DNA of 64,000 nucleotides from Euglena gracilis (GCA_039621445.1 CP154954.1:20570642-20634641), one strand, 5' to 3'. Positions 232 through 63,467 are shown, counted from the stretch's first letter. Numbers and translations are program-made. Notes: generated by a model not told the origin, from the letters alone.

Positions 232-233
232 CG

Positions 234-3200
234 ATGGCTTGCGTGGCCCTGCAGGAGGCGGTGGACGCCATCCACCGGTTCGGGGCCCTGCAGCAGGGCC
301 GGCTGGACCGGCTGGCGGCCGCCAGCACGACCGGCGGCTTCCCCTCCGTCCCCCCTCCGCTGCCGTCCCCCGGCCAGGGGAGGGGCCGGACGGAATGGGA
401 ATCCCGGCAACCCTGGGGGCCAGGGCAGAACAGGAATCGGCCAAACAGTGGTGGGTGGGGGGGGGGTCGACCCCCCCCCCAGCCCATATTTCCGGAGCAC
501 CAATTTTCGACCCAATTTTTTTTCCCGGCGTCAAAGGCGCCAGGGAAAATTTGTTTGAAAAATCCGTGAAAATGCTGTGGTGGGTGGCCCCCCATCTCCC
601 GGGGGGGGGTCGACCGACAGAAGCCAAAGTGCATCTAAGGGGGGGGTCGACCGCGGTAATTGGGGAGTTGACCCCCCTACCCCAGTATCCTGGTGGGCGG
701 TTGGGTTACTTGACCATAGCCCCAAACTGTGAGTTTTGCTGGCGACCACCGCCCGCCAGCAAAACTCACAGTTGTGTGACGTTGCCCAAGCCGAATCATG
801 AAACTAATTCAGAATTCGGAAATATTGCAAAGCAGGATGACTCGAGCGGGGACGGGAGTCACGGCAAATGTATGTCGGGCAGGGTGTGCCGAATGTGGAG
901 GGTCCGACCTCACACATCACCTCATCAATATTTAGGTTAAAATTTTCGTTTGGTATTGAAGGAATGATCTGCCCCCCCCACCCTCCAAACAGAGTGGGAG
1001 AGGGCGGTGGAATTAAAGGTCTAGGAGCGTAGACTCATTTGACACCTGTGTTACCCTTCCCCAGGGGTGGATGGTGGGTGTTCTAGAGTGGGTGAGTTTT
1101 GCCCGGCTGAAGCCGGCTGAAGGCTGATGATTTTTTTTCCAGGGGTTCTGGCTGATTTTGGGTGGGTTTTGGGTGGGTGGGTGGGTGGGTCGACCTGGTC
1201 ATGCGAGGGCCGATTTTTTTTTAAAGAAGTGGGTGGCAGGTTTGGGCCCTGGGAAAAGTGCCCCACGCCCCAGGGATCACTAGCTATTCCATGCCTGAGA
1301 GACGACGTTGCGGACGGAACACCCCTGGCAAGCCCCAATGCGGTGTGAATGGACTCCCCCCAATGCATAGTTGTGTAAAACGTTTCGCCATGCGAAACGT
1401 AACTGCTGGCCTGGCTTGTCGCAGTGCCAGTCGGCAGTGCCACAGCCCCGGCCCATTTGTCAAACCGCCGCCCTCCCACTCCCTGGCCCCGCTCGGCACC
1501 GGTCGGAGGAGCAAGCCCGGGCAGCGTGGGACAAGGCGGAGTGGGAGCGGGCGGAGAAGGACCGGCCGGGCCAGCCTGGGCTGCCACCTGGATCCCCAAG
1601 CGCGGAGGTGGTGTCTGAGTGCCTTGCGAGGGGGGGGGGTCAGAAACCTGGACCACCAATCGGTGGTGGTTTGGGCACCCCACCTCTCTCCTGCACTTGT
1701 GGTCAGCCCCCGAGTTCATCATTTTTGTGATTTGGATAATCCCAAAATCGCCTAAAAAAACCCCAAAAAATCAACTAACCCCCCCAACAGGGCCCACGTT
1801 TCCCGATATTTTTTTCGGGATCCGATAAATTCAAGATCGTCGACAAGGCCCAAATGGGCCGATGTCCAATACAACGATTCTTGCTCTGGGGACGATGGGT
1901 CGCTGCCAGCCACCGCTGACGCCGACATTTTTTTTTGGGAGGCTTTGTTCTAAAAAAAACGCCCCAGCCGGCGGGCCACAGGACCGTGGTGCGGGCGCCG
2001 GCCTTCTCCCGCGACAGTCAGCGGCTGGCCAGTGGTGACGGTGGGGTCAGAGCGTGCGGTTCTGGGAGGCTGCTGGGGATGGGCTGCCACAAGCAGGCCC
2101 CCGCCTGGGTTTTGGGTGGGGGAGTGTGGGTGGGTCCGAACCCTGGTCATGAGGAAGCGGGGCGGCCCGATTTTTTTTTAAAGAAAGTGGGTCCTGGGAT
2201 TCAGCTAGCTATTCCAGCCTGAGAGGACGCGTGGCGGACGGAATAGCAGGCCCCCGCCTCGGCTAAGCGTAAGGAAATCTCCCGAAATCCGATCCTCCTG
2301 AAATTGAACCCTGGACAGCGGCTGAAAGCAAGGAAGGGCGTTTTGGGGGAAGAGAGTCGGCCCCTGGACGGGCGGGGAACTGAGGCGGGCGGTTGACCAG
2401 GTGAGGCCGGGTGGCCCCTCCTTCCAGTGGAAGGGGCCAACATCGGAACACAGGAGACCTGCCTCGGTCCGGGTTGGAGGAGGGGGGGGTGCCCCCCACC
2501 CCCCCACTCCTGGACCAGAGGGGGGGTCCGGACCACCCCCCACCTGCCAAGGGGTCTGTTCCGACCCTGGGGGGGGGTACCCGTGACCCCCCAAAAGGTC
2601 AGTTTTTTCCTTCCAGCGCTTTGCGCCGAATTTTTTGAGCCTTTTTGACAATGTTTGCCCCCAAAAGTGCCCGAAATGACATTTTTGACACTTTTGGCTA
2701 TTTTGGGGGGGGTCAAACTTTGATTTGGCCATTTTGGGTCAAACCGCATCGCGCTGGCCGAATTTCGGTCACCCAGACCACGCCACTGCACAGGAGGGGG
2801 GGAGTCCCCTGCCTGACTGGGGGGGGGTCTGACGACCCCCTCCCGCCCTTTATTGAACCTTGGTGCTGTCGCGACTCTTCACGAAACCCACACAGGCGGC
2901 CCGCAGGGGACGGGACCGGGAGGCGGCGGAGAGGCTGCGGCTGCAGCGCGAGGAGGAGGACCGGGCGGCGCGGGAGCGGGCAGGATGGTCGTTGTGTGGG
3001 AGGAGGGCACGTCTGGAGTGGCAATGGCTGTGTTGGTTCCCTGCACTAACCCCCCCCCCACTGATAAAGTCCCGGGGGTTTATAGGATCTGGTTTGGCTG
3101 GTCAGCCGAAGGGGGGGTTTATAAGTCAAGGAATGTTGGTGAAAATCTGACCCCTCAAGGTGACCTAAAACCTCCCAAATTTGGCAATTTTCGGCAAATT

Positions 3201-6200
3201 TGGCCAAAAATGGCATTTTTGATGATGGTCGGTCTCAAAAAAAATTCCAAAAAAGATAGTTTTTGGGTGGATTGCGGCCGAAAAAATTGTCCCCAGCGGT
3301 TTTCATTTTACTTCTCCAGGGGTGGTTATAAGTCAAGGTTTGGTTGGTCAGCCCAAGGGGAGGGTTACAAGTTGGGGGGGGGTTCACTATTTACCCAGTG
3401 AACCGTTCATTAACACTCAGCACTCTGGGGCTGCCCGAGACCAATTACCCTTCTTAGTGCGGTGTGTATTATGTTCCCGGGTGCACTCCCACTCTGGTGT
3501 GCTTCCTCAAAGGACACCGGCCTTTCTGAAGCTGTGAACGCCGGATGCGGGAGGAACGTGAACAAGGGCAGGCCTCTTTTGAGGCTGGTGCGCAAATAGG
3601 TGGATTTGGGTGTTATTGATTTGGTGATTTGAGTTCTGAATGTCGTTCTTTTTTTGGGTTATTCTCTTTTTTTCTTTGCTCTTTGTGATGGACCACAGTG
3701 CATTTTTTTGGGTTGGGGACTCGAGAAAGAGCTGCCTGTGTCCGGGGGGGATATACAAGTTGGATATTTTGCATTTGCATTTTCTTGTATGATGCAAAGC
3801 TTTTTCTTGCAGTTTTTTTCCATGATGAAGAATTTGCAAAAACTCGCATTGTTTGCATTTTTTCATACTTTGCTTTCCAATTTTAGGGGCAATTGCGCAC
3901 ACCAATTGCTCTTCTGCCAGGATAATGGAGGTTGCACACCGCACATTTTGGCCACAAGTGGATGCCACTGGGCAAACCAAGCATGATATTTTTCAAGTTT
4001 GGACCACGTTTTTGATGTATGTCCTGGTAGAAATAAGTGCAAATGATTGTTCAAAGCATGCACCATGCTTCAGAGCAAATGATGTTGCAAAGCAAAAATT
4101 TACACGGAAGCGGCTTTTAATAAAATCATTTTTTTTTCAAAATATTTATTTTGTAAATCTCAAGTCCTCTCCACCGCCCTTGGACACCACAATTTTCTGG
4201 GGTCCCCGCTGGGAATCCGGAAAAGAAGCCAGGGCTGCACTTTTTACTTCAGGGGGAGCCAACCAGCAAGAGAATTGAACAACCCCCAAAAACGCCCGCC
4301 CCGGCGGGAGGAGGCGCGGAAGGCGCAGGAGGACAAGGAGAACCGCCTGAAGCGGCAGCACGAGGAGCCGGAGCGGCGGCTGAGCAAGAAGCAGCGGCAG
4401 CCCCCGCCGCCGTGCTCCCCGCGCTCCGCGGCGGCGCATTACGACATGCCGCCGCCCATAGATTCGTGTGTGACTTTGGGCCCGAGGGCGGGGGGGGGGG
4501 TCGTGCCTGCCTCCCCAGGCACTCCAGGGCACTCCGACACCCCCGCTCCCCTCCCGAGGTTGGTCAAATTCAGCCTGCGTTGGGGTGGGGGGGGTGGGGG
4601 CTTGGCCCATGGATGAAGTTCCCCTCTCCCCCCGAGGTCGCCACGTATCTATGCCGCCGCCCTCCTCCCTGAAGGCAGTGCCCCTCGGCAACATGACAAA
4701 CACCCAGGGCCTGTGGGTCGTCCATCCAGGTGCAGTGCGGAGGACCACAAATCTGCAAATGTTCCTTGTGAGTCAAGTGCCGTGCACGGCGTGGCAAAAC
4801 CATCGGTGTGGGTGTGGGTGTGGGTATGGGTGCCGCAAGAGACCCAATTATGAGGTCCGCAAAAGAAATACCCACACCCACACCCATACCCATACCTGTG
4901 CCGAGGCAGAGCTCATCACCAGCTGAGGGCACCGTCGGCTTCCAACTCTGCCTGGGGCCTCGGGGCCCTGCCTCCGCCCCGGCTCAGTCCCCCCGGCAGA
5001 CGCCCAAGTCCCCCCGGTCCCACGAGCTGCACGCCCACCCGAAGCCCGCCCCCGCCCAGCACGCAGCCCCGGCCCCCGCCAAGCCGCAGCCGCAGCCGGC
5101 GGTCGCCCCCGCGCCGCTTGTGGCCGCGTCGCCCGCCGACGACCCCAGCCGGAAGGCCCAGCCCCCCGCCCAGGGTGTGAAGTGACCATTGGTTTTGTAC
5201 AGGGGGGAGGGCCGGGATTTTTTTTTGTTCCGCGGCGCGTTGTGCTGGAATGTAAATGTTTTCATCATCTGGGTTTGCCAATTTGGTGAAAGAATCACAT
5301 TCCCGCGCGTTGCGCCGGCTTTTTTCCCCCAGCAGGAGGGACCCCCCTGGGCGTGAAGGGGGTTAGGGACCCCCTTAGTTGCACTAAGGCTTCTTGTCTG
5401 TTTATGGCCGGCGCTAAATTCGCTTCTGGCCCAGTTTGCTGTGTGGTGAGTGGCCAGGGACCCCTTACACCAGTCCTCTTTTGTTGCTCCCCCTGGCCGG
5501 GTGAGTAACTCTGGTGTAATTCCGGCGCTGTAGGGACATACACTCACCTTGTGTGGTTGGTGTGCTTCCCGTGGGTGGGTCTACACCCTTGCGCCCCAGT
5601 TCTGCTCTTGCCTCCTGCCCTCTTCCCACTTTTCTGTGTGGGGGATGCATGGCGCAGGCACAACGCCATGACTTGAAAAACTCCAATGTGGCCTCACAGT
5701 CCCGCGGCTTAGGTAAACCCGGGTCACCAAGTCTCGGCCTTAGGGCGGGTGGCGGGTGGGTAGTGTGCTGCTGGGCACCAGTAGTTCCTTACATACTGGT
5801 ACCTGCGCTCCATGCCTGTCCGGGGTTGGTTTGGGTGGTCCACTGCCTCGCGGGTGGGTCCCTCTCTGCTGGCTTCCCCTTTGGGGGTGGGTTGCTGGGG
5901 GGTGCGCTCCTACTAAGCCGGCGAGCCCGAAGGCCCCCCTGCCATGTCCCCCGGGCGGTCGCACGAAGCGCCATGCCCCCCTACAGAGGCATCGGAGGGT
6001 TAGGGACCCCCCCTCATCGCTGCTCACTTCAGACCCTGGCCCGCCTGGGCCCGGTCACAGGCCATCCACGACGCCCTCGCCGCCCAGAACCGCAGCCATG
6101 TGAATGCTTACGCCTCTTCTCCCTTTCGCATGCTTTGGTAGCTGGCAACTTTCCCCCCCCCCCAGGCGCCTGGCAAAGGGACTCGTTCAATTCATTTCTT

Positions 6201-8217
6201 GGATTGTGTTTCTGCCTTTTTTGATGGAATGAATCTGGCTCCGTCCCCGTGGTGCAAAGCATTTGCATTGCCGGGATCCTGATGAGATCTTCGCACCGCT
6301 GAACACAGGGTGCACGGCTCTCTGACTTAAAGGGGGTCTCTTCCCAAAGAATGTTTCTTGTGTACTGCCAAGAACTCAAACAGCACGTTGGAGTGTGGAT
6401 CATTTCAGTGCCCCCCTTTTTATTGATATGCTGTCATATTCCGCAAGCTCCCCAAATAATAACCCCTTCCCATTTTTTTTTTCACCGCGAAATTTTTGTT
6501 TCTGCATCATTTCTTCGTCGAAGGCACTGTCCAATGTGACAGTTTTAAAAAATAACTGCCAACACGGAATGAAAACAAAGAATTTAAGAAAACGAATGAA
6601 GACAAAGAAGTTTTATTAACGGAGCATTTGAAGTTTTTTTTTTGTGACCCAAAAGTCCAAATAATTGGCCCCTCGGGAACGAACATCCCTAAGTGCATAA
6701 AGTGCATGGACAATCTTCATTCTTTTTTTTTTGCTATGCAAAGGTTTGTTCCTTGAAAATTGTCCACAAGGTGTTTCATTCAGTGAACACTGGAATGGAG
6801 TAACAGGTTTTTTATTGTATTATATATTTGCATTATTTGGTAATGTCGGTGAAAAACCTTGCCACCCTGACATCCCTGAAATCAAACTGCTTTTTGCAAT
6901 TTGGGAGCAGAGGTGGCAACAGTGACAACGACCCATGAGCGACAACGACCAAAGAGCGGAAACCGATGGTGACCTTTTTCGACCTTGGGCATTTCTTTTG
7001 CTTTTTGTTTGCTGAACGTTTTCCCCTGGTAATTAAACCTCCTTCCTCATTTTTCTTTGCTGGCAATTTCCCCTGAATCGGTGATTTCCCTCCTTTATCA
7101 ACAATGGGTCCTCTCCACTGATTAACGCTGGTTTGTCCAATGGAAGCCGAGTAAGTGGAAGCTTATTTTTTTGAAGTTCAGCTTCCTGGGGGAAGGGAAG
7201 GCCCAGCCGCCAACCCCCCCCCCCCCGCTCCAGGGTGTGCTAGGTGTGGGTGGGTTAGGGCTGTACGGGAACCCCCACAACCCTATGGGTGGTGGGGGGT
7301 CGACCCCCCCCCCACCCTCATCCGGGTGGTAGGGGGTGGTTCTGACCCCCCCCACCAGGCCTTCCCGTATTTCCGCCGATTCTTTGGGTGAAAGTTTTCC
7401 TTCGGCGCTTTTGGCACTGAAGGAATTGTCTTTGAGCAGGTGCCATGGTGGGTGGGGGGGTGTCCACCCCGCGCACCTCCCGGGTGTGTGCCGACCCCCC
7501 CCCCCCGCCAGGGGATTTCTTAAGCCGGAGGACCATCCCCCCCGGGGGGGGGGGAGGGTCCAGCCAGCCAGCATCTCAAATCCAGCCAGCAGCTCGTTTC
7601 CAGCCAGCAGCCTCGCGGGTACTTACCCCCCCCCCCCCTATGTCCAACGACCCCCCTATGTCCAATGACCACCCCCCCGGTCAGAGGACACCTTTTCGGA
7701 GGTTTGACCAAATTTTTGGTCCCGGCGTGAAGCGCCGGGACGAAAGATTTTGCCCAAAAATTGCCCAGAAATTTGGGCAAAATGCCATTTTTGACACTTT
7801 TTGGACAAAAATTTGTCAAAATTGCCCAAAATTTTCGGCGCAAAGCGCCGGAAGGGAAAATTTGGGCATTTTTGGGTGGGTAGGGACCCGGGTACCCACC
7901 AACTTTCTTTCGACCCCATGTCCAACGACCACCCCCCCCCCCCGGTCAGAGGACAGAGGTTACTGGTCATTGGACATAGGGGGGGGGGGGGTAAGATATC
8001 CCCCGTCTCCCGCTCCTAAAAAGAAACCTCCGGTAGAACGCGTTCCCCGCCGCGGGTGCCCCCCGTGCCGGGGACCGGCGTGGACCTGGACCGCATCTTC
8101 GGCCCGACGTACGCGAAGCACAAGCGGCCGCGCACCAGCTCCGCCAACTGGCACATCGACCGCTTCACGCCCGCGGAGGAGCTGCAGTACAAGCGCGACA
8201 TGGGCTACTCCGCGTAG
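234..8217 (+). CDS. INCENP: INCENP-like chromosomal passenger protein, multi-exon. Exons 234-371, 1491-1568, ~2868-2977, ~4300-4457, ~4663-4672, ~4976-5167, 6043-6093, 6275-~6304, ~8074-8217; further small exons possible near 1965-2030 and 2355-2400
   Basis: Stitched C-terminus RKAQPPAWARSQAIHDALAAQNR|DPDEIFAPLN|TGVDLDRIFGPTYAKHKRPRTSSANWHIDRFTPAEELQYKRDMGYSA* has the IN-box motifs (PxWA, DPDxIF, RTSSANW, YxxxMG). Upstream exons encode E/R/K-rich helical and Pro-rich segments. ATG at 234 follows a poly-C tract and CAG; TAG at 8215-8217. Confidence 0.85.
372..1490 (+). other. Non-conventional intron (gene A)
   Basis: ggcCAGGG...CCCTGgcccc; phase-0 join SP|ARHRSEE. An extra small exon inside cannot be excluded. 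Confidence 0.6.
5168..6042 (+). other. Non-conventional intron with 15-bp terminal inverted repeat
   Basis: CAGGGTGTGAAGTGA (from 5171) pairs with TCACTTCAGACCCTG (to 6038), 14/15. The join gives QPP|AWARSQ. Confidence 0.8.
6094..6274 (+). other. Non-conventional intron inside the IN-box
   Basis: agcCATGTGAATGCTT...AAGCATTTGCATTgccgg; join QNR|DPDEIF. Confidence 0.75.
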
Positions 8218-9262
8218 CCTGTGCAGGCCTGTGCCAGCGCTGCTTCGCTGCGTCTGTTGGTCGTCCCGATTTTATGGTTGGTGACGTGGGAGGGGGGCTT
8301 GGAAACGTACCCGAGGAGGGGTGGGTCTCCCCCCCCCCCCCCCGCGAGGTTGGGTGCCGGGCTGAGTGAGCACCCTGAATCCCCCCCCCCTGGAAGAGTT
8401 TTTCCAGGGTTTCCAGGAAGGAGTGTTTCCTGCTTTTAAACTCCAAAATTGCCTCCCCCAACCATGTCCAAATGAAGTTCTGATCCTTGTCCCAGTCGAA
8501 GGCATGCTGGTGGGGTGTTCATTGTTGGGCGGGCTGACCTCTCATTTGACTCTATTTGTCGATTAAATCCGCCAAGGAACGGGCCACAGCAGATGGTACT
8601 CATGAAGGGTGTTTAAACTGTTTTATTTTTCAGTGCGGTGCTGAAAAACACATTTTCTAGAGCAGGATTTTTTTCTGATCCACGCAAGTGACCCCCAAAG
8701 AAGGCTCGATCCCCAACCCTCTGCCCTGACCCTCCTTGGTGACACTCCCCCGTCGGGTCCTGGAAGCAGCTTCTGAACTGCTCTTTGAATGTTACAGGCA
8801 GCCTAACCATATTCTTTTTTTTGCACCCATTATGGCAACGCTGTCCAGACTTGTTTTTTCCCCCGACGGCACTGCCCGGAAGGGTCTTCGCTGCCTAAAC
8901 CAGTGCTTCTCTTTCAGATTCAGTGCCATGGCGAATCGCCAATGCCATGGGGTTCTGTTTCCTGACGTCTGTTCTCACCCCAGGAGGTTCCAACAAGGCT
9001 CCACCATTGCACAATTTCCCCGTTACATGCCACCCCCGTTCTTTGGTGGACAAAGAAAGCCTGGGAAAGCCTTCCGCCACATCTGACCTCTCTTGTCCCT
9101 GTAAATTGTTGACCTCTCCGCTTTCCCAGAGAACCTCCTCCCGCCCAGGGCTGCACGGGAATCCCAGAAACCCTATGGCAGTTGGCGGGGTCGACCACCC
9201 CCACCTCCATCCTGGCAGGTGGAGGGAATCCCCACCATGTCTTCCCGTACCGTGTACCACGC

Positions 9263-9908
9263 AAATTTTCAGACCCTGAAAAATCGAAAAAAATAATGGC
9301 ACCCCACACTCCACAGTGTCATCCCGAAATCGCCTCCCAGAGCTGAGAGCACTGGTGGAGGGGTGCTTTGACAGGCAATTGTGATGGCACCAGCGAAGGC
9401 CTTTTGGGCATCATTTTGGAAATGGACGGCCTTTTCAAACCGCATTCACTGCAGTCCAGTAGGATCAGGCTTGCTCCATGCACAATTGCCGGTCCGGGTG
9501 GGGTGAGTTGGGTTGACAGCTGGAAATGGGCTCCCCAGTCATTTTTTCCTGCTGGGCTCTCAAACTGAGTTTTCCTGGACTGTTCACAGTGGATGGGATT
9601 ACAGTTTCACCAAAATTTGTGTGCAAGAAGTCCATTGAAATTCACCAAAGGCGATCCATTTCGATGTCCTCGTTTTGTTTGTGCAAGCCTGTACAACAGC
9701 AACTTTTACATCTATAACACTCGGTGCCAAATTGCATTTCTGCTGTTCTGCAATACCATGGTGGTGCCATCGGGCACTAAGCAGTCACAATTGCCTGTCA
9801 AAGCACCCCTCCACCAGTGCTCTCAACTCTGGGAGGCGATTTGGGGATGGCACTGTGGAGTGTGGGGTGCCATTATCTTTTTTCGATTTTTTCAGGGTCG
9901 GAAAATTT
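9263..9908. repeat. Long inverted repeat, ~120-bp arms (9263-9384 and 9785-9908)
   Basis: The arms are near-perfect reverse complements. Confidence 0.85.
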
Positions 9909-10725
9909 ACTTGGCACACTGTATTTCCGGGGCGCCAAAATTTAGGTCAAAGTTTTCTTTCAGCACCTTTGGCGTCGAAGGGAGGGGTTCTCTGCGCGGG
10001 TGGGTTGACCCTCCCGGGTGGGGGGGGTCGACCCCCCCCACCAGGCCTTCCCATACAGCCCGGCCCTCGCCTGTGTACGCTGTTCCGTCCTCCCCTGTTT
10101 TATTTGGGCCCCGACACGCTCGCACCGCCTCGCTCTCCTTTCCCTCCCCTGCCCCTGGCTTCCTTCCCCTATTCCGCCACCCCCTCACCCTCCATGCCTC
10201 CTTTCCTCTGGGCCCGGGGGATGAGGAGCCTCCAGGCATCGGGCAGCCTCCAGACCGAAGCACCTCACTGCTTCATGTGAACGCTCCCCCTTTTGGTGGT
10301 CTGGATAGGTCGGGCCTCATCCCCCCAGAGAATAGGGGCCGCCTCACAAATTCAACAACCGTTTTTTTTTTTAATCCTCATTAGTGATGCCCCCCCCCCC
10401 CCCTGCAGTCGGTGTCCTGCAGGGAACGCGCAGAGTCCAGGAGCGTCCGCAGAGCCAGGATACCCGGAGCCTACTGCCATTCAAAATGGCGGTCTGGCCG
10501 ATTTTTTTTTGTTGCCGTGAATACCCTTCTCAGAATTCCACTGGCCGATGCGCAGATGGCTGGAGCAGGGGTGAGCAAGCGAGTGGCTCAATGACGCAAG
10601 GATTCAACGCCAACTTCTGAGAAGGTCAGCCCCCGGGCAGTCCCCAATACACCCCAACCCAACCAGTTGAGCGCTTGGCACACCCAACGTAAGTAAGTGC
10701 TGTTGTCACACCATACCGATACCTA

Positions 10726-10840
10726 CCCCCCCCCCCCGGGAAACTGTCATGCCCGAGAACCTGTCAGGGTCCCGCCCGGGAAACTGTCAGGGTCCCCGGT
10801 GCCGGCCAACCTGTCAGGTGACAGTTTCCCGGGGGGGGGG
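10726..10840. mobile_element. TA-flanked MITE with (C)nGGGAAACTGTCA termini
   Basis: TA|CCCC..GGGAAACTGTCA...TGACAGTTTCCC..GGGG|TA. Other copies at 16114-16273 and 49588-49822; variants at ~45345-45468 and ~58934-59292. Confidence 0.8.
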
Positions 10841-13800
10841 TAGATAGAGGCAGCGACCACCGTCTCCGGGGGTTGCCGCCGGGGCATCCCCCGGCGCCCG
10901 CCCCGCTCGCATAGACCGTGCCCCCTACTCCTGGTCCTGTTGGAGGCGCACCTCGTGGCGCTGCAACGTTGTGGCTGTGCTGGCGGACCGCATCCAAGTC
11001 CATCCTTCTCCCTCCTTTGGCCCCGTGTCGACGTCGTGTCCACGAACACTTGTTCAGCTGCTCCAGCCTCCACCCCCCCTTCCCCTGCAGCCTCGTTTCT
11101 TCGCCTGCACCCCCCTGTTTGGCCACCAAATAATATTTTTAAGGTTTTTTTTCAAATCTTTCAGGCATTTTGAGTCTTTCTTTTTTTAAAGGCTTTTTAG
11201 GCCATTCTCAGGCTGTTTAAAGGCGCCATTTTCCAGGGTGGCCCAAAGGGATGTCCGGGCATCGAACCAACGTTTTTGATTTTGCATGTGGTCCAAGGTC
11301 AAAAAAATCGAAAAAACACATGTTTTGAATTTTCACTGGATGGACCAGCGATGCCAGGAATCTTTTTCTTCCCCAGAGTAGGCCTGTTTCAGCCAAGAGT
11401 TTGCGATTTCATTTTTGCTAGGTCGGAGAAAATCATGTTGGCCCGAATTTTGTTTCTTCAAAAAGGCATTTTCTGGCATTTTACGGTATCTTGGCACAAA
11501 AATTTAAGGCCCCCTTTTAAGGTTTTAATGTTTGTTTTTAAGGCGCCTTGAAAATTATGATTCCTGTGGGTGACATCGAACAGGGACGCCTGCAGTGTGA
11601 AGCGAACAAAAATAATTTGTGGGCAGAGGCATATTTTAGAGAAAGAGGTGCTGTTGTTGTGGGGTTTTTGGATTTTGTTGCTGCACACCCAAGAAAATAG
11701 ATATTGTACAATAAAATAAATATTATTTTCAAAAGGAAATTGTGGCTTAAAAATACAAGGATGCACACCGCATTTAAGTCTAGGTGTGTATCCATTAACA
11801 CAGAGTCTAGGTGTGCATCCATTAACACAAAGTCCAAAAACCAGCACCACGGAAATTCCACAAAACGTGCAAGGGAAATACGTAGATATTCATTCAATGG
11901 GGGTGATGGATGTAATTGATGGTATTGGATCGAATCCTTGAATACGGGTGGATGCACCTCCGTTCGTCAATGACCAATGCATCACAGGGAGGGGGAAACC
12001 GCAAGCAAGCTGTATGAAATGGCGATGGCACACACAAGAAATTTTTGGGAAACTGCAGAGAAGTTGGCTTTCCAGAGAGATCGCTGCCTCACAGAACTTC
12101 GTGTATTTTCCCAGAAGATCACTTATCTGCTACCAAATAATTAGTTTGACATTTAATTTAATTAAAATAATTTAATTTTATTTTTAATAATTTTTAATCT
12201 GGTTTCTGAAATCAGACTAACCACACACCAACCACACGTCATCGCCCCCTGGTGCCCAGCTTCCAACACAGGGCACAGAACCTCCCCTCCTAATCATAGA
12301 GACCACAACCACCCCCGGGAGCCACAATAACCGTCCAAAATTTCAAGAAAAGACTGGGACGGGGAGGGGGGTGAATGCGCACCTGCGCATTCACTGGGCA
12401 CCATAAAGCAGGGGGGACAGCGACAGGTGCAACGGCTTCATCTGACCAGGGTTCATCCCTGCGATACAGCGTTTCCTGTCGCACCTCCTGCGGCAGACAG
12501 GGGTTTTCCCTCGGTCAGCGGAAGTGGTAAACCGTCATTTTCAAAACGAAAAAGGCCGGTTTACCCAGGAAAAAACCCAGGGGTCGAAGGTAGGGGTACC
12601 CACTTCGGTATCACGGGTTTCAGCTGACAGGTGAGCCGCCCCGTGAAGTGATGGCAACACAATTGGTAAAAAAAGAATGCGCAGGTGCGCAAAAAACCAC
12701 CAAGAAAAGTGCATTCCCGGCTGTCTAAGAATCTACAACCCACCCACCCACCCAACCACCTGCACCTTCATGTCCACACACAAACAGGAGCCAAAAAAGG
12801 AAGAACCTCCGCAGCTTGTGGTGCCAGTATCTGCAGCCCAGACCCCATCCCAATCCCATATCCCCAGCGACGCCCACTTCAAAATGAAGGGAGTGCTAAA
12901 AGGCCAAAGTTCATTTCGAAACACCATGATTGGAAAACTAACTCACAAAGGACGGTCGTCTTAAAGAACTTTCACACGCTGTCACACAGGTGGTCCCACA
13001 GGGTGATGTGTCGTGGTGCCTATGAGAAGGCGAATGCAGAGCGGGCACCGTGCATGGCTGCTATGCCTGCGTGTGTTTTGGAGGGGGGCAGTGCACCGTG
13101 TGGAATGCAAACAGCAGGCTCCCTGAGGCAGGGCACCAATCCCTCCTTACAACACCTGGCATGGGTTTAAATACACCGTCACCCACCACTCTCTGGGTCT
13201 GACGGTTGGGATGGGGTGCTGGGTATGGAGGGGGGGGGGTGCTGGCTTGCACTCCTTTCTTGTGTGTCACTGGTTCCTAAAGCTCCGGAGCGGAACCCCG
13301 CTTCAACCCCTTTTGCCACAGACTGCACCCTCCAGAACAACCCCTCACAAACAATATAAAATGACTCCTCTCGAGGTTGCATGAGGCACAAGAGTGCGCA
13401 CGTGCGCACTCTTGGGGCCATTCCTTCGTTGGCTGGGTGTGATTCTATCTGCAGGAGAGCAGGAGGGGAGCAGCACTGGGCATCCACAAGAGTGCTCACC
13501 TGCGCATTTCGTGAGGGGGAGCGCGCATGTGCGCATTCTCTGTGTTGTGGGGAGCTGTGTCTCGCACTCCTGAACCCAGTGTTGTCATGGTGCACCGCTG
13601 TCCTTTTTGTTAGCGCATCTCATTACAGGTGGATGCCACCAGAGTAGGCTGTACGTCTCTTGGGCTGTCCCTCCACCTTGTATGCTGAATTGTTAGACAT
13701 GGCCTTGTGCGGCAATCTCCTGCCAGGGTGCATTAATGGGAGACACAAGACGGAGTATGTGGGCATTCACCCCAATGTGCTGTGTTTGACTGCAGCCATT

Positions 13801-16113
13801 GCAGATGGGGTGCATGGAGAAAGTGTGCGTATGTGTGTTCTCCTTGGTCTTCACAGCGGCCAGTGGTGGTGTTGTGTTCAGTGCTGGAGCGTCGAGTCTG
13901 AGTACATGATAAATAAGGGTTCTGTGTGGTGGGTGACATTTGCTGCCAGCAAGGCCACAGGTGGTGGTCCTCCTCTTCCGAGTTTCGCTCCAGGGCTGCC
14001 TCGTCCTCGGACACCATTCGATCCTCGCAGAGAGGTATACACTTCAGCCGTGTGGTTTCAAACCCAGGCCAGGCGGGGGGAGGTGGTGTGGTTGGTGGCA
14101 GGCCCACCTGGGAGTGCAAAAATTCAGCAGTGTGGTTGTAATTTAAAGAGAGCCACAGGACGCTTTTTTTTGTGCATGTGCGCATTCACCGGCTTTTTAC
14201 TCATGCCATGAACGACTGCTGACCGCAGTTGGGAATATGGGTGCCTGCCACTGAGGAATTTCTTCGGTCACTGAAGTCCCTTTCTCACCTGTTTTCCCAT
14301 GGTGTGACACAGTGGAATACACAGAAAAAGCAGAACGGCAAACATTATTGGGTTTACCCGGAGGTTTTTTTTATGATGTGCTTGTGCCTGACTCACGGTC
14401 TCAAGGACCTGGATAATTTTTTTTGGGCAAGGATTGACCAATGGTGTTCGCTTCTTTGAGTCCATTTGGATTGTGAAATAGTTCTGTGTTTACAGACCGT
14501 CTTTGGGAGCAAGGTCAAAGGTGGCGATGGGTGTCTTTCGCTCTCGAGGTGCCAACCCAGTGAGCACTGTGTATGTGGAACCAGACACAATCCCCTGCGT
14601 TGCCCCTCCTTGCACCGTGCACTGCAGTCCAACGTAAGGTTGTTCAGGGTGACCATTGGCTGTGTGCTGCCATGCATGCTCTGGGGCGTGGGGTTAAACA
14701 ACACTGGCAGCAACCGGCCCTTCACCTCCGACAGGTGGGGGACGGTTGCAAGTGTTTTGTTACATGCTCCACACGTTCATAAGAGCAGCGCAGGCTGGAC
14801 TGGGCAGTGGACTGCGTAGACAGGTGCGCATTCTGATTTGTTCAATGACTTGAGCTGCAGGGGGGCAGTTCCCTTGTCATTGAAGGACATGAATTGGTGC
14901 TTTGAGACCTGCTGTCACCGAGCCCAGGGTTTTCCACGCCGCTGCAGGTGTCGTATTTCACGGCGTGGCCTGGTACAGCGACATTGTTGCCAAGGGTGAT
15001 TTGTTTGGTTCATCTCCCCCTCACGCACCCATGTTCTGCAAGCCCAAAACCACATCATAGCGGTGCACAACTTGGATTCAAGGCAATACCCATTGCATCC
15101 TTCAACATCATGCGCGTGTGTGCATTCCCCCTTCCCACAGCCTGCGTCCATTCAAAAAAATGCACACCTGCGCATTCTTTTGGGTTTCCAAAAAATGCTC
15201 AGGTGCTCAGTGACACACTTGTTTTGACCTTGGGAGGACTGTCTCTCTATGGCTGCAAGGAGTTCCTTCCCATGCTCATCCCGGGTTCACCAGGCCCTGT
15301 CCCCCGGAAGCCATCAGGACACATCGGTAAACACAAGGTGGCACACTATGGTCCAGGTTGGCCTGCGTCGCCCGTGTTCCGCATGTCGTGTAGAGTGTGC
15401 CGAGTGTGTGTCCAGCCACGCACTGTACCACAGTCGTTGTGCAACAGCTGCAAACAGCATGATACACAGTTGAAGCAGTATACACAGGGGCGGTCCCTGT
15501 GGTCGTGTAACATCCAAAAAACTCATTTTTGGATTCAGACCGGTGTTTTCACCCAGTCTGGAAGAGGAACGGAACCGTCCGGAATGCGCACCAGGTGACT
15601 TCGCTTCCGGAATGCGTGGATGCACATTTTCACTAAAACTGTCAGTTCATTTTGTGACTGAACAAGAAAAGTGCATTCCCAGCCGTCCAAGAGATTTGCT
15701 TTTTCAGACTTAGTTTAGGTGGTCGATTTCATTTCAGCCTTTTCATCTTCCTATGTTCAAGTTTTCAAAAAAATTTCTCAGCGTTTGGGTCCAGATCCAG
15801 GGTTTTGAACTGCTCTCTCCGCGTGTCGATTTTCAAGATTTTCCCGACAGACCATTTGTGCAATTAGGACCGACATTTTTTTTTTAAATAAAAGGCACAG
15901 TACATGGTATTTTGTAAGGCTTACTCTCTTCCTAAAATCGTTCCAGAGACGTCCTGTATTGATAAAGCATGGGATGTCATGAGGAAACACATATGCCAGG
16001 TGTTTGTGCCTGTATGCTGTGGTGACACCCGGTCTAGCCGGTGTGGGGTGTCTTAACAGTCATTTGAACTTCCCTGGGCGGTTCTAGGGGCACCAGACCA
16101 CGCAACGTTATAG

Positions 16114-16273
16114 CCCCCCCCCCCCCCGGGAAACTGTCGTGCCAGAGAACCTGTCAGGGTCCCGCCCGGGAAACTGTCAGGGTCCCATCACTGGCCAACC
16201 TGTCACGACAGGAAGTTGTCAGGGTCCCCGGCACCGGCTGACCTGTCAGGTGACAGTTTCCCGGGGGGGGGGG
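16114..16273. mobile_element. TA-flanked MITE, second copy
   Basis: Same TIR and internal AACCTGTCAGG repeats as 10726-10840. Confidence 0.8.
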
Positions 16274-16328
16274 TATGGGCCCCTCACTGCTTCCTGGTGA
16301 CGTCTGCAGTGACTCCCGCACAACTGTT

Positions 16329-51559: not shown

Positions 51560-51817
51560 CAGGGGTTTTTTTAGTCGTGGACCCCGGGGGTGTGTGGGTG
51601 GGTCCGGCCGAGCCCCCCCCAGGGGGGTTCCCCCGGAGGGGGGTGGGATATACTTTTCGGCGCCGAAGGCACCGAAAATTTTTGAAAAAGTGCTATTATT
51701 AGCACTTTTCGCGATTTTTCGGCCTTTTTTTTTTGTGGGTCCCCCGGGACCCCCCCGGGGACCCCCCCCAGGGGGTGGGTGGGTGGGGGGACCCCCCGGA
51801 CTTTAAAAAAACCACTG
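51560..51817. mobile_element. hAT-like MITE
   Basis: CAGGGGTTTTTTTAGTC...GACTTTAAAAAAACCACTG; perfect 8-bp TSD ACCTGTGG. Relatives at ~24933-25145 and 59850-60121. Confidence 0.85.
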
Positions 51818-59849: not shown

Positions 59850-60121
59850 CAGGGGGATCTTTTTTTAGTCTTGGACCCCCCGGGGGGGGTAGGGTGGGTG
59901 GGTCTGGCGGAGCCCCCCCCCCCCACCCCTGGGGTGAGGGTCCCCCCAGGGGTGGGATATATATTTTCGGCGAAGGCACTGAAAAAGGTGCTATTTTTGG
60001 CATTTTCACGATTTTTTCCATTTTCGGGGGAACGTGAGTGGGTCCCCTGGGACCCTCCCGCCCCCCCCCCCCTCCAGGGATGGGTGGGTGGGGAGGACCC
60101 CCGGTCTTAAAGGTGCCCCTG
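59850..60121. mobile_element. hAT-like MITE, older copy of the 51560 family
   Basis: Similar body, CAG...CTG ends, decayed TSD TTCAGCTG/TTCAGTCA. Confidence 0.7.
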
Positions 60122-60144
60122 TTCAGTCACCGGCAGGCACCTAC

Positions 60145-60950
60145 GGCCGACCGGGGCCGACCAGGGCCGACCAGGGCCGACCAGGGCCGACTATGGTTTT
60201 CAGGACCCCCGTAGGTGGGGGTTCCGACCAGGGCTGACCAGGGCCGACCAGGGCCGACCAGGGTCGACCAGGGCCGACTTGCATGTGGTTGGCCGACTGA
60301 AGGGGAATGGATGAAGGAATTCGGCAGCTTTGCCTCTGGACCAAGCACCCCTGATGCTGCTGGGCGATGCAGGGCGATGCTGGGTGATGCTGGATTTTTG
60401 GAGACCAGAGGTGGGGTTCCGACGCTGGGCGATGCTGGGCGATGCAGGGTGTTGCTGGTCGATGCTGGGCGATGCTGGCATTTTTTTTTGTATATTTTGA
60501 AGAACTAAACCCATTTTTGGATAATTTTCTCACAAATCTCCAGTTTTACACCCATTTTGGCCATTATGGATCAGTTTTTGCTAATTTGGGGGCTATTTGT
60601 CACTGATTGGGCAAATATTGGGCTAATTTGGGTCAATCTGAGCATTTTTTATGGAATTTTGGCCATTTTGTGCCCTTTTGGTAATTTTGGGTCATTTTTC
60701 ACAATCTTTTGTGGATTTTGTTGGCGTTTTTGGGTAATTTTTGGTTATTTCAAGCCATTTTAGGTCATTTTGGTTGCCTTTGGGGAGCCAATGGAGGCTT
60801 TATGGGGCATTTCTTTTTGATCTTGGCGAAACAATTCAGAAAATCATTGCATCGCTTCACAATTTTTCTGTGACGGATACCCCCACCTATGGCCGACTAT
60901 TTGCCGACCAGGGCCGACCAGGGCCGACCAGGGCCGACCACGGCCGACCA
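60145..60950. repeat. Element carrying clusters of the 10-bp repeat GGGCCGACCA at both ends
   Basis: Clusters at ~60145-60277 and ~60890-60950. Confidence 0.7.
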
Positions 60951-61731
60951 GAGCACCAAAATGGGAGGTGACCATAGGTGCCTGGTCACCGGTTCTTTCC
61001 CAGCAAGGACCTGCCCATGATTGCCTCTGTCCGTCGTGTTCAGTGCGTCACCGATTAGAAGGTGCCATGCTTGAACGCGGATGATGAAAACCTGCAGCCA
61101 TGAAGCCTTCAGCTGCCTGGTCCTCGTTCAAGCAGTCTCGTGCAAGCACATTGATTGTAAATCGATCTTTTTTTTTGGAAAACCGACCGAAACAACACCG
61201 CATTGGATGATCTTAGGCGTGGAATTGTGTATTTCTGCCAAGGATGGAGGCTGGACTCCCCTCCTTTGGGGGCTCCCAGTCCGATTTTTGGGCTGCTGGC
61301 TGGATTTGAGCTGCTGGCTGGCTGGACCCCCCCCCCAGGGATAGGGTCCCCTTCAGCTTAAAACGTCCCCTGATCAGCATGCCGTTGCAACATTTCAGCC
61401 TGGGGGTGACTGACTGGTTTTTTTTCAGAGTGACTGACTGGTTTTCTGGCCAAGAACTCCCAGGGGGTGGGGTAGGCCCAAAAAATGAAAAAGTGGCTTG
61501 CCTGGGAATTTTTTTGTGGTTTTTGAGACTTTTTGGCAAATGTTCATTGCCTCCTGAAGAGTGACCGATCCCCCACCGGGGGGTAAAGTGACTGACTGGT
61601 ATTTTCAGAGTGGAAAGTGACCCCCCCCCCGGGGGGGGTCGCTAAGCAATGGCATGGGCCAGAGCTTCTGAAGAGGTTCAGAGGGCCAGTTCTGTTCTGA
61701 AGCCAACCCAGCGTTGCCCAGGGGTGGGGCG

Positions 61732-61733
<2 letters not shown>

Positions 61734-61764
<31 letters not shown>

Positions 61765-61767: not shown

Positions 61768-61799
61768 GCCGCGGCCGCTGCAAGTGATCCCGAGCCCCA

Positions 61800-63467
61800 A
61801 TGGACGCCGCGCTGCTGACGGCCCTACAGAGAGCCCTGGCGGAGGTCAGCGCAGATCAGGCGTCGTTTGGCCCGGTGCCTTTCCCTGCACAACCTCGTCA
61901 AAAGAGGTCCGCGGGCCGTTCTGGGATGGTGACCGCGAACCAGCGGGGGCCAACCGGGCAAGGGCGTTGGCAACGTGTGGAAACAAGGGACCCTGGACCC
62001 TGGGGGGCACAAATAGGAACTAGAATCAATGCCAGAAGGGAGGGGGCGAAGTGCCGCCGTTCCCTCACGTCATTTGGCATTTGAATGTCTTAAGCGCAAT
62101 TTCCATTCGCAACATCAGATTTCCCGGGAAAGGTTGCTCAGTCAGGGAGGGATATGCAACAAGGCCCCTTAAAATATCCAATGCAAAAAAAATGCAAAAA
62201 AATGCAAAAATCACGACCATAGCTGCACTTTTCCTACGTTCATTTGTGTTTCAGATGGTGTTCTTGGTCATTTGGTTTAAACGTGGCTTACATGGGTTAC
62301 CAATTGACGCCCCTGGGCAATTGTCACCCCCCCCTGTGCTGCCCAACTTGTCACGCGACAATTGCCCGGGGGGGGGGCGAGTATTCCCCCCCTGCAAGAA
62401 TCACACACACAGTTCCAGGGTGCCATCCCCATCCCGTTCACACCGGCCCAATGGGGCCTGGCGGTGGGGGCAGCGACCCGAGCGAGGGGGCGGCGCTGGT
62501 TGGGCGGCCGGTCACCATCAAGGCCCCGGAGGAGGTGTGGGCGGTGCTGAGCTCCACCGTGGGGTTCGCGCTGAGCGACGGCGACAGGGAGGACCTGCAG
62601 CTGATGTGCGTCGCGGTGGGGGACCAGGGGTCGGCAGGCTTCGCCTTGGCCGGGGCATTTCCTTCCTTTCTTCGAAGCTGTTGCCTGCCACCATAGGGCA
62701 CAAAAAATCATTTCGTTCATTCCTGTGAATATCCGCACATGCGAATAAGAACTAATGGATAATAATTTTCTTGCATTTTTCTCTTCATTTTAGCACGCCC
62801 GACTTTCACATTCGGAGCCAGGAAAAGCTCTTGGAGAGTGTGCCGATGAAATGGTTTCATTTGGTCTGCAATATGGTGGCTTTATGGGCGGTTTTTCTTA
62901 ATTTCTGGTGATTTGGGCAAGAACCAAAAGGGAGTTTGCACAACAGTGTGGAATTTGAATGGGGGGAAATCGGTACCCTGTATAAGTTAAATTTTAGGAA
63001 TATCTTGCGGTATAGTCCAGAATCTTTGCACACCTTTTTGGGTTTTTGACGTTTCCACTAAAATTGAAAAAAATATCGTCAAACGGCTGAAAACCAAATT
63101 TCTTAACGAATTCTGACCGAAAGCAACCCAAAACAGTGATCTTTTGAACCCATGCCTCTCAATCAAATTGCTGGTCAAAATGGTCCAATTCAGCCTAAAT
63201 GACATGAAGTGCCAATGTCCGGAAATTGCAAGTTCAGCTCGGGCCAGTTTGAAGCATTTTAGTCCAGTATTGAACGCCAAAATGGCACTTCTCTGACCTT
63301 ACAAGATTGCCAACAGCAACCGTTTTTGGACATTCTTAATGCGCTTTTTTCTTACTAATACCGCATAATCCTGCATAATTTGGAAAATATTTTTGTCTGT
63401 TTGTCTTGTCTAGGCCCCTGTCGCCGGCCAGTGTGGTGAGGTTCGGACCTTCGACAGTTCTGATGGT
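61800..63467 (+). CDS. Gene C, 5' part of a paralogue of gene B (exons 61800-61853, 62466-62621, 63426-~63467; probably continues past the window)
   Basis: MDAALLTALQRALAE resembles gene [33 protein letters not shown]...AVG|GQCGEVRTFDSSD resembles gene [19 protein letters not shown]...[16 protein letters not shown], with the intron at the same codon. Confidence 0.8.
61854..62465 (+). other. Non-conventional intron (gene C)
   Basis: gatCAGGCGTCGTTTGGCCCGGTG...CACCGGCCCAATGGGGCCTGgcggt; phase 0. Confidence 0.8.
62622..63425 (+). other. Non-conventional intron (gene C)
   Basis: gacCAGGGG...CCCCTGtcgcc; same codon position as intron 21705-22011. Confidence 0.8.

Follow-up and report, generated by a model that had tools for sequence, protein, structure and literature searches.

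Within the window, by which we mean the whole stretch of 64,000 nucleotides of Euglena gracilis nuclear DNA analysed here, free MITE-like elements bounded by 8-bp duplications (TSDs) occur together with introns cut 3 and 5 nt outside a helix of inverted ends (TIRs), and in one coding intron the RNA lacks an element together with exactly one copy of its duplication. We consider it probable (roughly 0.6) that hAT-like MITEs with 8-bp TSDs, combined with an excision measured 3 and 5 nt from the helix, constitute a route to scarless introns. The observation as a whole is plausibly a sharp variant of the MITE-origin hypothesis. Since the 1990s it has been asked how euglenid nonconventional introns arose and what removes them, and their origin is still called unclear in the 2025 study of their cis code (PMC12501133). 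The specific link, consisting of a transposon superfamily, a TSD length and a split of the TSD by the spacers, would sharpen the loose "MITE-like" idea into a claim checkable in the assemblies that exist for E. gracilis and for E. agilis, as well as with the published knock-in reporter. If true, it would account for the same pyrimidine-purine (Y-R) consensus at both junctions, for the "slidable" nature of most introns and for the harmless spread of such introns to most genes.

Introns defined by RNA

RNA was mapped over window bases 1-20000. The sample takes 15 of 72 joints, from which one was removed and to which one (16470 to 17066) was added from alignment pieces, giving 15 introns; the joint 4569 to 7549, found within repeats in a single contig of a single run, was left out. 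The bounds of introns 11 and 12 were re-derived from the RNA letters, which show small indels relative to the window. The features are as follows.

234-8217, + strand: gene 1, ORF of 304 codons in 10 exons, ATG at 234, stop at 8215-8217
234-371, 1491-1563, 2909-2977, 3534-3563, 4306-4453, + strand: gene 1 exons 1-5
4659-4701, 4976-5167, 6043-6093, 6275-6300, 8073-8217, + strand: gene 1 exons 6-10
372-1490, + strand: intron 1, 1119 nt, CAG/CTG, slide 5
1564-2908, + strand: intron 2, 1345 nt, helix CGGGCC/GGCCCG at +4/-6
2978-3533, + strand: intron 3, 556 nt, CAG/CTG, almost no slide
3564-4305, + strand: intron 4, 742 nt, GGC/GCC, weak helix
4454-4658, + strand: intron 5, 205 nt, with a 197-nt element at 4457-4653, slide 12
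4702-4975, + strand: intron 6, 274 nt, CAGGGCC/GGCCCTG
5168-6042, + strand: intron 7, 875 nt, TIR 13/14 CAGGGTGTGAAGTG, 6-nt direct repeat CCCGCC; the RNA takes out element+7
6094-6274, + strand: intron 8, 181 nt, no slide, helix present with its first pair mismatched in the 3/5 register
6301-8072, + strand: intron 9, 1772 nt, CAC/GTG
8230-10899, + strand: gene 1 3'UTR introns (10-13)
8230-8782, + strand: intron 10, 3'UTR, outside the geometry, offsets total 11
8843-9068, + strand: intron 11, 3'UTR, CAG/CTG, fits
9143-10068, + strand: intron 12, 3'UTR, CAG/CGG, fits
10145-10899, + strand: intron 13, 3'UTR, outside the geometry
16309-18187, + strand: start of gene 2, exons 16309-16470, 17066-17217 and 18071 onwards, ATG at 16329
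16471-17065, + strand: gene 2 intron, ends CAACCACCGGC/GCCGGTGCTTG, 10/11
17218-18070, + strand: gene 2 intron, CAG/CTG

These introns are members of the euglenid nonconventional class. A GT/GC-AG placement is possible for 0/15 of them at any allowed slide (bases 1-20000), and pairing summed over 7 helix positions peaks at 78/105 for a 5' offset of 3 and a 3' offset of 5, against 36-55 off the diagonal. Positions +4..+6 are complementary to -8..-6 within the slide range in 11/15 introns. The non-GT-AG junctions with 3+5 geometry claimed by the preliminary description are thus recovered for these 11, but introns 7 and 8 only approach the geometry and two 3'UTR introns, 10 and 13, do not fit it. 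The acceptor-side exon begins with a purine in all 13 geometry-placed introns (12 G, 1 A).

The same description saw CAG...CTG stems in most junctions, which was generous since exact CAG/CTG triplets end the helix in just 5/15 introns (7 if intron 7 and the CAG/CGG of intron 12 are counted); CGG/CCG is found in 1/15 and the rest are CAT/ATG, CAC/GTG, CAA/TTG and GGC/GCC. It was mistaken in limiting the introns to phases 0 and 2, those of gene 1 being 0, 1, 1, 1, 2, 0, 0, 0 and 2, and correct on frame restoration, as removal of the nine gene 1 introns gives the single 304-codon ORF. The ORF of gene 2 also stays open across its two introns, and for the last junction proposed, ending at 63425, position 62622 is, judged from the sequence, a plausible 5' partner, and the frame is open. 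Searched singly against Pfam, the gene 1 exons matched no family. A highly expressed repeat lies at 5371-5997, within intron 7.

Free MITE-like elements

Eight free elements of 258 to 851 bp were delimited in the window.

29716-30076: 361 bp, 17-bp perfect TIR CAGGCATTTGCTTAAGG, perfect 8-bp TSD GTCCCCCC
31639-32103: 465 bp, 16-bp perfect TIR CAGGGGATTTCTTAAG, decayed TSD (5/8)
34244-34625: 382 bp, perfect TSD AATGGGAT
44622-44934: 313 bp, TIR CAGGGC..TTAAG, perfect TSD GGCCACAG
45589-45976: 388 bp, 15-bp perfect TIR CAGGGTTCGATATAA, TSD 7/8
51560-51817: 258 bp, TIR CAGGGGTTTTTTTAG, perfect TSD ACCTGTGG
59850-60121: 272 bp, diverged copy of the 51560 family, TSD 5/8
60134-60984: 851 bp, TIR CAGGCACCTA, perfect TSD GTCACCGG

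The four already known (29716, 34244, 44622 and 51560) have the CAG...CTG inverted ends and perfect 8-bp TSDs attributed to them; of the four that we add, 60134-60984 has a perfect TSD, 45589-45976 one at 7/8, and 31639-32103 and 59850-60121 show 5/8 each. CAGG(G/C) opens 15 of the 16 element arms, the remaining arm opening with CAGTG, and a subterminal TTAAG motif is common to several of the eight. The element at 34244 belongs to the same family as that at 29716 (76.5% identity along its whole length), and folding of 34244-34625 as RNA predicts a closing helix formed by its TIRs. Partial copies of the 45589 family lie at 2467-2697, 7714-7880 and 35669-35878, and other copies of the 51560 family at 24933-25146 and 59850-60121. 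The interior of 60134-60984 contains 10-bp tandem repeats.

The length of the duplication was compared with chance in 1200 CAG..CTG pairs at most 3 kb apart with TIR matches of at least 8/10. Perfect direct flanks numbered 6 for k=4 (5.5 expected), 1 for k=5, 0 for k=6, 1 for k=7, 5 for k=8 (0.025 expected) and 0 for k=9-12, so that the excess over chance is confined to length 8. Shifting the right flank by 1, 2, 3, 5, -1, -2, -3 and 20 nt left 0, 0, 0, 0, 1, 0, 0 and 2 perfect 8-mers, respectively.

An element removed with one copy of its duplication

The element of intron 5 has a TIR CATAGAT.CGTG matched at 12/14 and a perfect 8-bp TSD CCGCCGCC. The RNA skips 205 nt, that is 197+8, within coding sequence and with the frame kept; the skip is supported by 36 reads at 30 starts in X21, 10 reads in X24 and contigs of X1 and X2. 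Against this perfect pair, 8/8 identity occurs in 0/156 non-self flank pairs. The intron has CAT/ATG as its terminal triplets in place of CAG/CTG, and the window contains a single copy of it. It is a direct example of the arithmetic put forward earlier, in which the element plus 3 and 5 nt equals the element plus one 8-bp TSD. As in introners, splicing removes here the element with one TSD copy and leaves the mRNA length unchanged, in this one case.

Partial repeats in register are seen in introns 1 and 9 (5/8 each) and in intron 12 (6/8). Total flank identity is 50/104, compared with 33.5 ± 4.8 for shifted flanks. When flanks are paired between different introns the mean is already 42.9 ± 4.2, so most of the excess reflects a shared junction consensus; 50 is reached by 6.7% of 5000 permutations, and identity of at least 5/8 is seen in 5/13 introns versus 21.8% of non-self pairs (binomial tail 0.13). 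With the consensus controlled, the intron-specific excess of 8-nt flank identity that had been anticipated is therefore not significant among the window introns (p about 0.07). The consensus, C then G at 8-mer positions 5 and 6, is common to both junctions, with C at position 8, and an origin of the two junctions from a single duplicated 8-mer would lead one to expect the same C-G at both.

Within the 64-kb window, none of the introns matches a repeat family or another element from end to end. Donor families and derived introns, said earlier to lie side by side, come down to nested pieces of the 45589 family in introns 2 and 9. Introners are recognized by many near-identical copies that make up whole introns of unrelated genes and by further copies outside genes; these 64 kb, far too small a sample for that comparison, show nested fragments only.

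Proposed route and alternative readings

Whichever way round it had inserted into an exon, a MITE of this kind would be lost from the RNA with exactly one copy of its duplication, because 3+5 equals the 8-bp duplication, and its removal would restore the original message. The nonconventional pathway would read the helix of the intron's inverted ends and cut 3 nt upstream and 5 nt downstream of it, and the published code adds the condition of a purine as sixth base of the duplicated 8-mer. This purine is present at TSD position 6 in 2/8 free copies, compared with 13/13 introns; the majority of insertions would therefore not yield a scarless intron immediately, and the statement that any new exonic insertion does so was too strong. 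Many nonconventional introns may have begun as such insertions and lost their duplications later. The mobilising enzyme would be a hAT transposase, and the cutting may be performed by a protein endonuclease/ligase system measuring from the helix, as suggested by the circular intron products that have been reported. Tentatively, we extend the proposal to most of the roughly 70% of Euglena introns that are nonconventional, which could possibly be one hAT-like MITE lineage with 8-bp TSDs and a co-evolved non-spliceosomal cutting system whose 3 and 5 nt distances sum to the TSD.

It is unlikely, although the chance is a real one, that the MITEs are merely co-resident, the helix and the likeness of the junctions coming from demands of the splicing machinery and 3+5=8 being numerology. 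The partner permutation, which assigns most flank similarity to the shared consensus (C-G at the cut and C at 8-mer position 8), speaks for this reading, as do the 0 introns found in a window repeat family, the two introns ignoring the geometry and the varying triplets (CGG, GGC, CAT, CAC, CAA), which agree with the loose published code CD'G-CH'G (PMC12501133). Against it, the perfect duplication of intron 5 abuts its 12/14 TIR exactly and the RNA removes element+8, the TSD length of free elements equals what two spacers, each measured independently, add up to, their termini are the CAG/CTG preferred by the code, and flanking repeats are found at 84.4% of E. agilis introns (PMC12501133). The direction could also be reversed, the free elements being excised nonconventional introns re-inserted through an RNA or circular intermediate. 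Free elements do resemble introns and full-length circular intron products have been reported (cited in PMC11282704 and PMC12501133), but the 8-mer flanks differ from element to element and each copy has its own on both sides, as a staggered cut in the target DNA would leave them and a spacer carried along would not; the long perfect TIRs (15-17 bp) and the family structure are in addition typical of DNA transposons, and we regard this direction as highly improbable.

Superfamily of the elements

The general hAT TIR consensus begins YARNG, (C/T)A(G/A)NG, and a weak TSD consensus is nTnnnnAn. Mobilisation requires a transposase with an RNase-H-like DDE core and a C-terminal hAT dimerisation domain, supplied by an autonomous element whose ends match. 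An 8-bp TSD is not exclusive to hAT. The window elements have such TSDs (5 perfect, one 7/8, two 5/8) and short TIRs starting (C/T)A(G/A)NG; among only 6 well-kept TSDs, T is at position 2 in 3/6 and A at position 7 in 2/6. No transposase domain was found when the 10 longest ORFs of the window were searched against Pfam. The hAT label given in the preliminary description agrees with the TSD length and the CAGG(G/C) termini, and membership proper, which the transposase defines, is putative. From their sequence, the elements are plausibly non-autonomous cut-and-paste DNA transposons (MITEs) that bear the structural hallmarks of hAT.

That they belong to another superfamily with 8-bp TSDs, Merlin or P-like, appears quite unlikely to us, and the link with introns could hold even so. 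The DNA transposon on record for E. gracilis is Merlin, of which two families with 8-bp TSDs have been described (PMC8101967), the sources searched yielded no hAT transposase in this organism, and intron 5 begins with CAT. All Merlin TIRs, including those of E. gracilis, start however with 5'-GG (PMC8101967), whereas 8/8 window elements start with CAGG, and CA/TG, being inverted and not a direct repeat, must belong to the element; the CAGGG start agrees with Ac (PMC3260210). Judged by the Merlin definition of a 5'-GG TIR with an 8-9 bp TSD (PMC8101967), the elements fit in TSD length but, with their CAGG start, fall outside it.

Comparison with known systems

Earlier publications already cover a MITE origin of these introns, their ends resembling TIRs and TSDs, and the 3+5 spacer code. 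Knock-in established for Euglena the spacers of 3 and 5(-6) nt, CAG/CTG, the helix and the purine rule, with a typical helix-end motif CD'G...CH'G, most often CAG...CTG, and a wholly artificial 50-bp intron is spliced (PMC12501133). The window introns are alike in lacking GT-AG and in their +4../..-6 helix, which in that class is often CAG/CTG (Milanowski et al. 2014, PMC3935182; PMC12501133), and likewise share the 3-nt 5' spacer, the 5-nt 3' spacer and the frequent flanking direct repeats (PMC12501133). To this class the window adds, next to the introns, free elements that combine TIRs with exact 8-bp TSDs, and a single intron that keeps a TSD of this kind.

The idea that inverted ends and boundary repeats betray MITE insertions has been proposed in PMC3935182 (2013), at a time when no transposable element was known in euglenids, in the 2024 review PMC11282704, which labels CAG/CTG as TIR and boundary repeats as TSD-like, and in the discussion of PMC12501133. 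Unlike the present analysis, the passages of these texts that treat it give no superfamily, TSD length or donor elements. Neither "hAT" nor "TSD" occurs in the main text of PMC12501133, nor does "hAT" in the review, and the step from 3+5 spacers to an 8-bp hAT-type TSD with candidate donors was not found in the main texts of the papers searched.

Among transposons, Ac/Ds is the type hAT element, with TIR C/TAGGGATGAAA and an 8-bp TSD (PMC3260210). Maize Ds and the window elements share the 8-bp TSD, short TIRs starting (C/T)AGGG, a short heterogeneous interior and copies nested in other repeats (PMC3260210); those of the window differ by longer TIRs (15-17 bp) and the TTAAG subterminal motif. 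In maize, Ds copies that lie in exons are spliced out by the spliceosome (Giroux 1994, as cited in PMC3935182), whereas a non-spliceosomal pathway is proposed here. The Merlin elements of E. gracilis are likewise DNA transposons with 8-bp TSDs from the same organism group, with GG in place of CAGG (PMC8101967).

Introners (PMC9860276; Amoebophrya, PMC7789003) also combine TIR/TSD elements with the removal of one TSD copy and a usually unchanged mRNA length; "euglen" has 0 occurrences in the survey PMC9860276. They are defined by near-identical multi-copy introns, whereas no end-to-end copies were found among the window introns. Should the single lineage and its co-evolved cutter be real, the introner system of euglenids would exceed all others known in size, and it alone would have its own dedicated helix-measuring RNA excision machinery. 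Introners of algae, dinoflagellates and others use spliceosomal GY/AG sites or co-opt them from the TSD; in Euglena, unlike in these, the cut sites would follow the distance from the TIR helix and split the TSD into 5 and 3 nt.

Free MITE-like elements

The preliminary description had listed four free MITE-like elements, and all four proved to have exact coordinates, CAG...CTG inverted ends (TIRs) and perfect 8-bp direct repeats on both sides (TSDs). A scan of all CAG..CTG pairs provided a fifth element with a perfect 8-bp repeat and another one repeated at 7/8, and a motif search added two older copies. These elements, named by their start, and the relatives found by family comparison in the window are the following:

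29716-30076, free element, perfect TSD
34244-34625, free element, perfect TSD, one family with 29716 (76.5% identity end to end)
44622-44934, free element, perfect TSD
51560-51817, free element, perfect TSD
60134-60984, free element, perfect TSD (CAG..CTG scan)
45589-45976, free element, flanking repeat 7/8 (CAG..CTG scan)
31639-32103, older copy, TSD 5/8 (motif search)
59850-60121, older copy, TSD 5/8 (motif search), 51560 family
24933-25146, copy of the 51560 family
2467-2697, fragment of the 45589 family
7714-7880, fragment of the 45589 family
35669-35878, fragment of the 45589 family

The window has a base composition of 46-58% G+C and is rich in C/G-run repeats and microsatellites. Unanchored scans for inverted repeats with TSDs were swamped by the C/G runs and by TA microsatellites and missed elements with one TIR mismatch, and were therefore replaced by an anchored test, in which perfect direct flanks were counted per length around 1200 CAG..CTG pairs of the window having a TIR match of at least 8/10. 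Perfect flanks of 4, 5, 6 and 7 nt occurred 6, 1, 0 and 1 times, which is the expected rate, none was found for lengths 9-12, and length 8 was seen 5 times versus 0.025 expected; sliding the right flank as a control gave 0-2 perfect 8-mers.

The TIRs, among which are CAGGC.TTTGCTTAAGG, CAGGGGTTTTTTTAG and CAGGGTTCGATATAA, are 15-17 bp long in the best-kept copies and start with CAGG(G/C) in 15/16 arms, the remaining arm being CAGTG; a subterminal TTAAG is common to several elements. When each element was removed in silico with one repeat copy, none of the flanks was convincingly coding. Metagenome pattern scans with a MITE end returned 0 and 5 loci, and these 5 match in a 20-mer alone and are therefore unrelated to the MITEs. 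The Rfam search of the window gave 0 families.

Two arrangements around the free elements were also observed. The 851-bp MITE 60134-60984 sits only 12 bp beyond the older element 59850-60121, which suggests that insertions of these elements are clustered or nested. Adjoining the 29716 MITE, an all-triplet scan showed an A-rich inverted-end pair (30179-30840) with a perfect 8-bp flank, TTGGCCCA, which may be due to chance or be another type of element.

Transposon superfamily

By their structure, the free elements fit the hAT superfamily, since they combine an 8-bp TSD with a TIR start of the CAGGG type, as in Ac (PMC3260210). Merlin is the one DNA transposon family with 8-bp TSDs that has been described in E. 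gracilis, and a GG start is common to all its TIRs (PMC8101967); the window elements start with CAGG, the CA/TG being part of the inverted repeat, so the start that defines Merlin is absent. A P-like origin is also conceivable. The 10 longest ORFs of the window, mostly repeat-derived, contained no transposase domain in Pfam, just a weak sub-threshold match to a C1-type zinc finger. The accessible part of the E. gracilis chromosome-level paper gives DNA elements as 4.6% and names no superfamilies (PMC11252322).

Introns and genes defined by RNA

RNA data were aligned to positions 1-20000, chosen because transcript-like contigs were present there, and consisted of two contig runs (X1 and X2, presumed to be RNA) and two raw RNA-seq runs (X21 and X24), all with the same species label. 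The intron set comprises the best 15 of 72 joints, minus 4569 to 7549 (set aside, as it came from one contig of one run and lies inside repeats), plus 16470 to 17066 from the pieces table, that is 15 introns. Among these joints, GT/GC-AG placement was possible for 0/15 introns across the whole slide range. RNA evidence and intron type assign the window to the nuclear genome of a euglenid. The stranded run placed the RNA on the + strand, and two genes were delineated:

234-8217 (+), gene 1
from 16309 (+), gene 2

In gene 1, nine introns (phases 0,1,1,1,2,0,0,0,2) join 10 exons into an ORF of 304 codons, from the ATG at 234, directly after a pyrimidine run and AG, to the stop at 8215-8217; its 3'UTR holds four further RNA-supported introns, between 8230 and 10899. 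For introns 11 and 12 the bounds were reconstructed: small indels distinguish the RNA from the window there, and the mismatching letters were reported as "between" the joint sides. Gene 2 has two introns at its start and its reading frame is open across both. An impression of a SPRY-like domain in gene 2 was dropped without Pfam support; eight single exons gave nothing above the Pfam cut-off, and protein searches with exons 25147-25386 and 17068-17217 gave 0 matches. For the last junction of the preliminary description, ending at 63425, a plausible 5' partner exists (62622..63425), with which the frame would be open. Two ab initio approaches were of no help: exon finding by GC3 bias passed 3/676 ORFs, and combining CAG/CTG stems with open frames yielded 554 candidates on the + strand alone and was non-discriminating.

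Most RNA records on 1-20000 match the window at 95-99%, not 99+% (e.g., 1179/1839 in X1), and show numerous fixed differences as well as small indels. The RNA was therefore derived from a different strain or allele, or in part from paralogous repeats.

Some stretches had a very high RNA depth. Gene 1 holds, in intron 7, a repeat of about 625 nt (5371-5997) that reaches contig word depths of 5516 and 8769, versus about 100-150 in neighbouring exons, and strand depths of 86.9 versus 10.2 in the stranded run, with many reads ending precisely at 5370/5373 and 5997. On both sides this repeat has the direct repeat GGTTAGGGA and then CCCCC; it has no inverted ends and looks like a retroposon-type or other non-TIR insertion transcribed from many loci. 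Four intron or UTR stretches (2669-3335, 4670-5336, 7338-8004 and 10673-11339) have an RNA-contig depth 10-70 times that of exons and are located at C-run/G-run palindromes, one example being GGGGGGTCGACCCCCC; these C(n)G(n) palindromes are also present inside MITEs.

Splice geometry

To locate the terminal helix, we scored pairing over 7 positions at every 5' offset of 0-7 and 3' offset of 0-11, with each intron allowed its own slide and the 3/5 rule of the preliminary description not assumed. Summed over the 15 introns among the joints listed for 1-20000, pairing formed a single ridge where the 3' offset equals the 5' offset + 2, with a peak of 78/105 at (3,5) and 36-55 elsewhere. The proposed geometry, in which the helix starts 3 nt after the 5' cut and ends 5 nt before the 3' cut, thus holds for most introns, +4..+6 being complementary to -8..-6 in 11/15, but not for all. 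The 3'UTR introns 10 (8230-8782) and 13 (10145-10899) do not fit and use either another rule or another helix; in intron 8 the helix is present with its first pair mismatched, and intron 7 has a TIR of 13/14, yet the RNA removes the element + 7. The helix ends with CAG/CTG in five cases, the other triplets being CGG/CCG, GGC/GCC, CAT/ATG, CAC/GTG, CAA/TTG and CAG/CGG, and the first exon base on the acceptor side is a purine in 13/13 introns. This geometry is the published Euglena code, consisting of CAG/CTG or CD'G/CH'G, spacers of 3 nt and 5-6 nt, a purine and a helix, and demonstrated with knock-ins and synthetic introns of 50 bp (PMC12501133).

Possible route from element to intron

The arithmetic of the preliminary description is sound: with a helix from +4 to -6, excision takes out the element + 3+5 = 8 nt, and therefore, if the TSD is intact, the element with one TSD copy, in either orientation. 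Intron 5 (4454-4658) shows this removal directly. It contains a 197-nt element with the TIR CATAGAT.CGTG (12/14) and CCGCCGCC on both sides, and the RNA skips 205 nt in 36 X21 reads (30 starts), in 10 X24 reads and in contigs of X1 and X2; a slide of 12 is possible at the joint, consistent with the TSD prediction. Partial repeats in register were found in introns 1 (5/8), 9 (5/8) and 12 (6/8), and a 6-nt repeat in intron 7 is shifted from the register by one base. An end-to-end intron copy of another element was not found in the 64-kb window, itself too small to decide family membership; nested fragments of the 45589 family occur inside introns 2 and 9 only.

The flank evidence in this sample is not strong. 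For 13 introns, the two 8-mers are identical at 50/104 positions, versus 33.5 +/- 4.8 for shifted flanks (maximum 47 in 64 shifts) and 42.9 +/- 4.2 when the 5' flank of one intron is compared with the 3' flank of another, at least 50 being reached in 6.7% of 5000 permutations. Identity of at least 5/8 is present in 5/13 introns versus 21.8% of non-self pairs (binomial tail 0.13), and the single 8/8 alone exceeds the non-self range (maximum 7, 156 pairs). As non-self pairs are already near the observed identity, most of the similarity is a consensus common to all junctions, namely C|G across the cut together with a C at position 8. A common consensus at both junctions is predicted if the flanks derive from a TSD, and likewise by a pure splicing requirement. 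The same ambiguity concerns the purine at TSD position 6, present in 2/8 free copies versus 13/13 introns (Fisher p = 0.0005): selection on exonic insertions would produce this contrast, and a bare splicing rule equally. Because of it, the claim that any new exonic insertion would be a scarless intron at once was overstated. Flanking repeats reported for 84.4% of E. agilis introns, in a main text giving no length breakdown (PMC12501133), point in the same direction as derivation from a TSD.

One possible whole-MITE intron is the 24933-25146 copy, although its right end differs from that of the 51560 family and its flanks match at 2/8 only. It is directly followed by an ORF piece, 25147-25386 (+), with a cysteine-rich zinc-finger-like motif (C1_2 22.6 bits, FYVE 17 bits, both below the Pfam cut-offs), which ends with CAG|GTATGA, resembling a conventional 5' splice site. 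Judging from the sequence, this piece may be an exon between a MITE-derived intron and a conventional one.

Proposed mechanism

At the intron ends, both cuts are positioned by the helix, 3 nt and 5 nt away from it. The MITEs of the window form a helix of this kind, with the preferred CAG/CTG, and excision is exact for an element that has kept its 8-bp TSD intact. Exonic insertions would be neutral at targets with Y|R in positions 5|6, and would therefore accumulate. TSDs and TIR interiors would later decay, under selection that preserves the helix end and both spacer lengths. Proteins measuring from the helix would cut and join, yielding circular introns, for which PMC11282704 and PMC12501133 cite earlier reports.

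Comparison with known systems

The observation of the preliminary description is largely right, and one example is better than it had recognised. Searches of freely accessible main texts found no mention of hAT, of an 8-bp TSD, of 3+5=8 or of euglenid genomes with free donor elements, and euglenids are absent from the introner survey. So far the refinement has the backing of structure, arithmetic and one clean intron, but not of statistics, of repeat families or of a transposase. A MITE origin of nonconventional introns was already proposed in 2013, 2018, 2024 and 2025; a figure legend of the 2024 review labels CAG/CTG as "TIR" and the boundary repeats as "TSD" (PMC11282704), and the spacers of 3 nt and 5 nt were published in 2025 (PMC12501133). 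The reading of these introns as an element with one TSD copy is a sharp, testable refinement of this known hypothesis.
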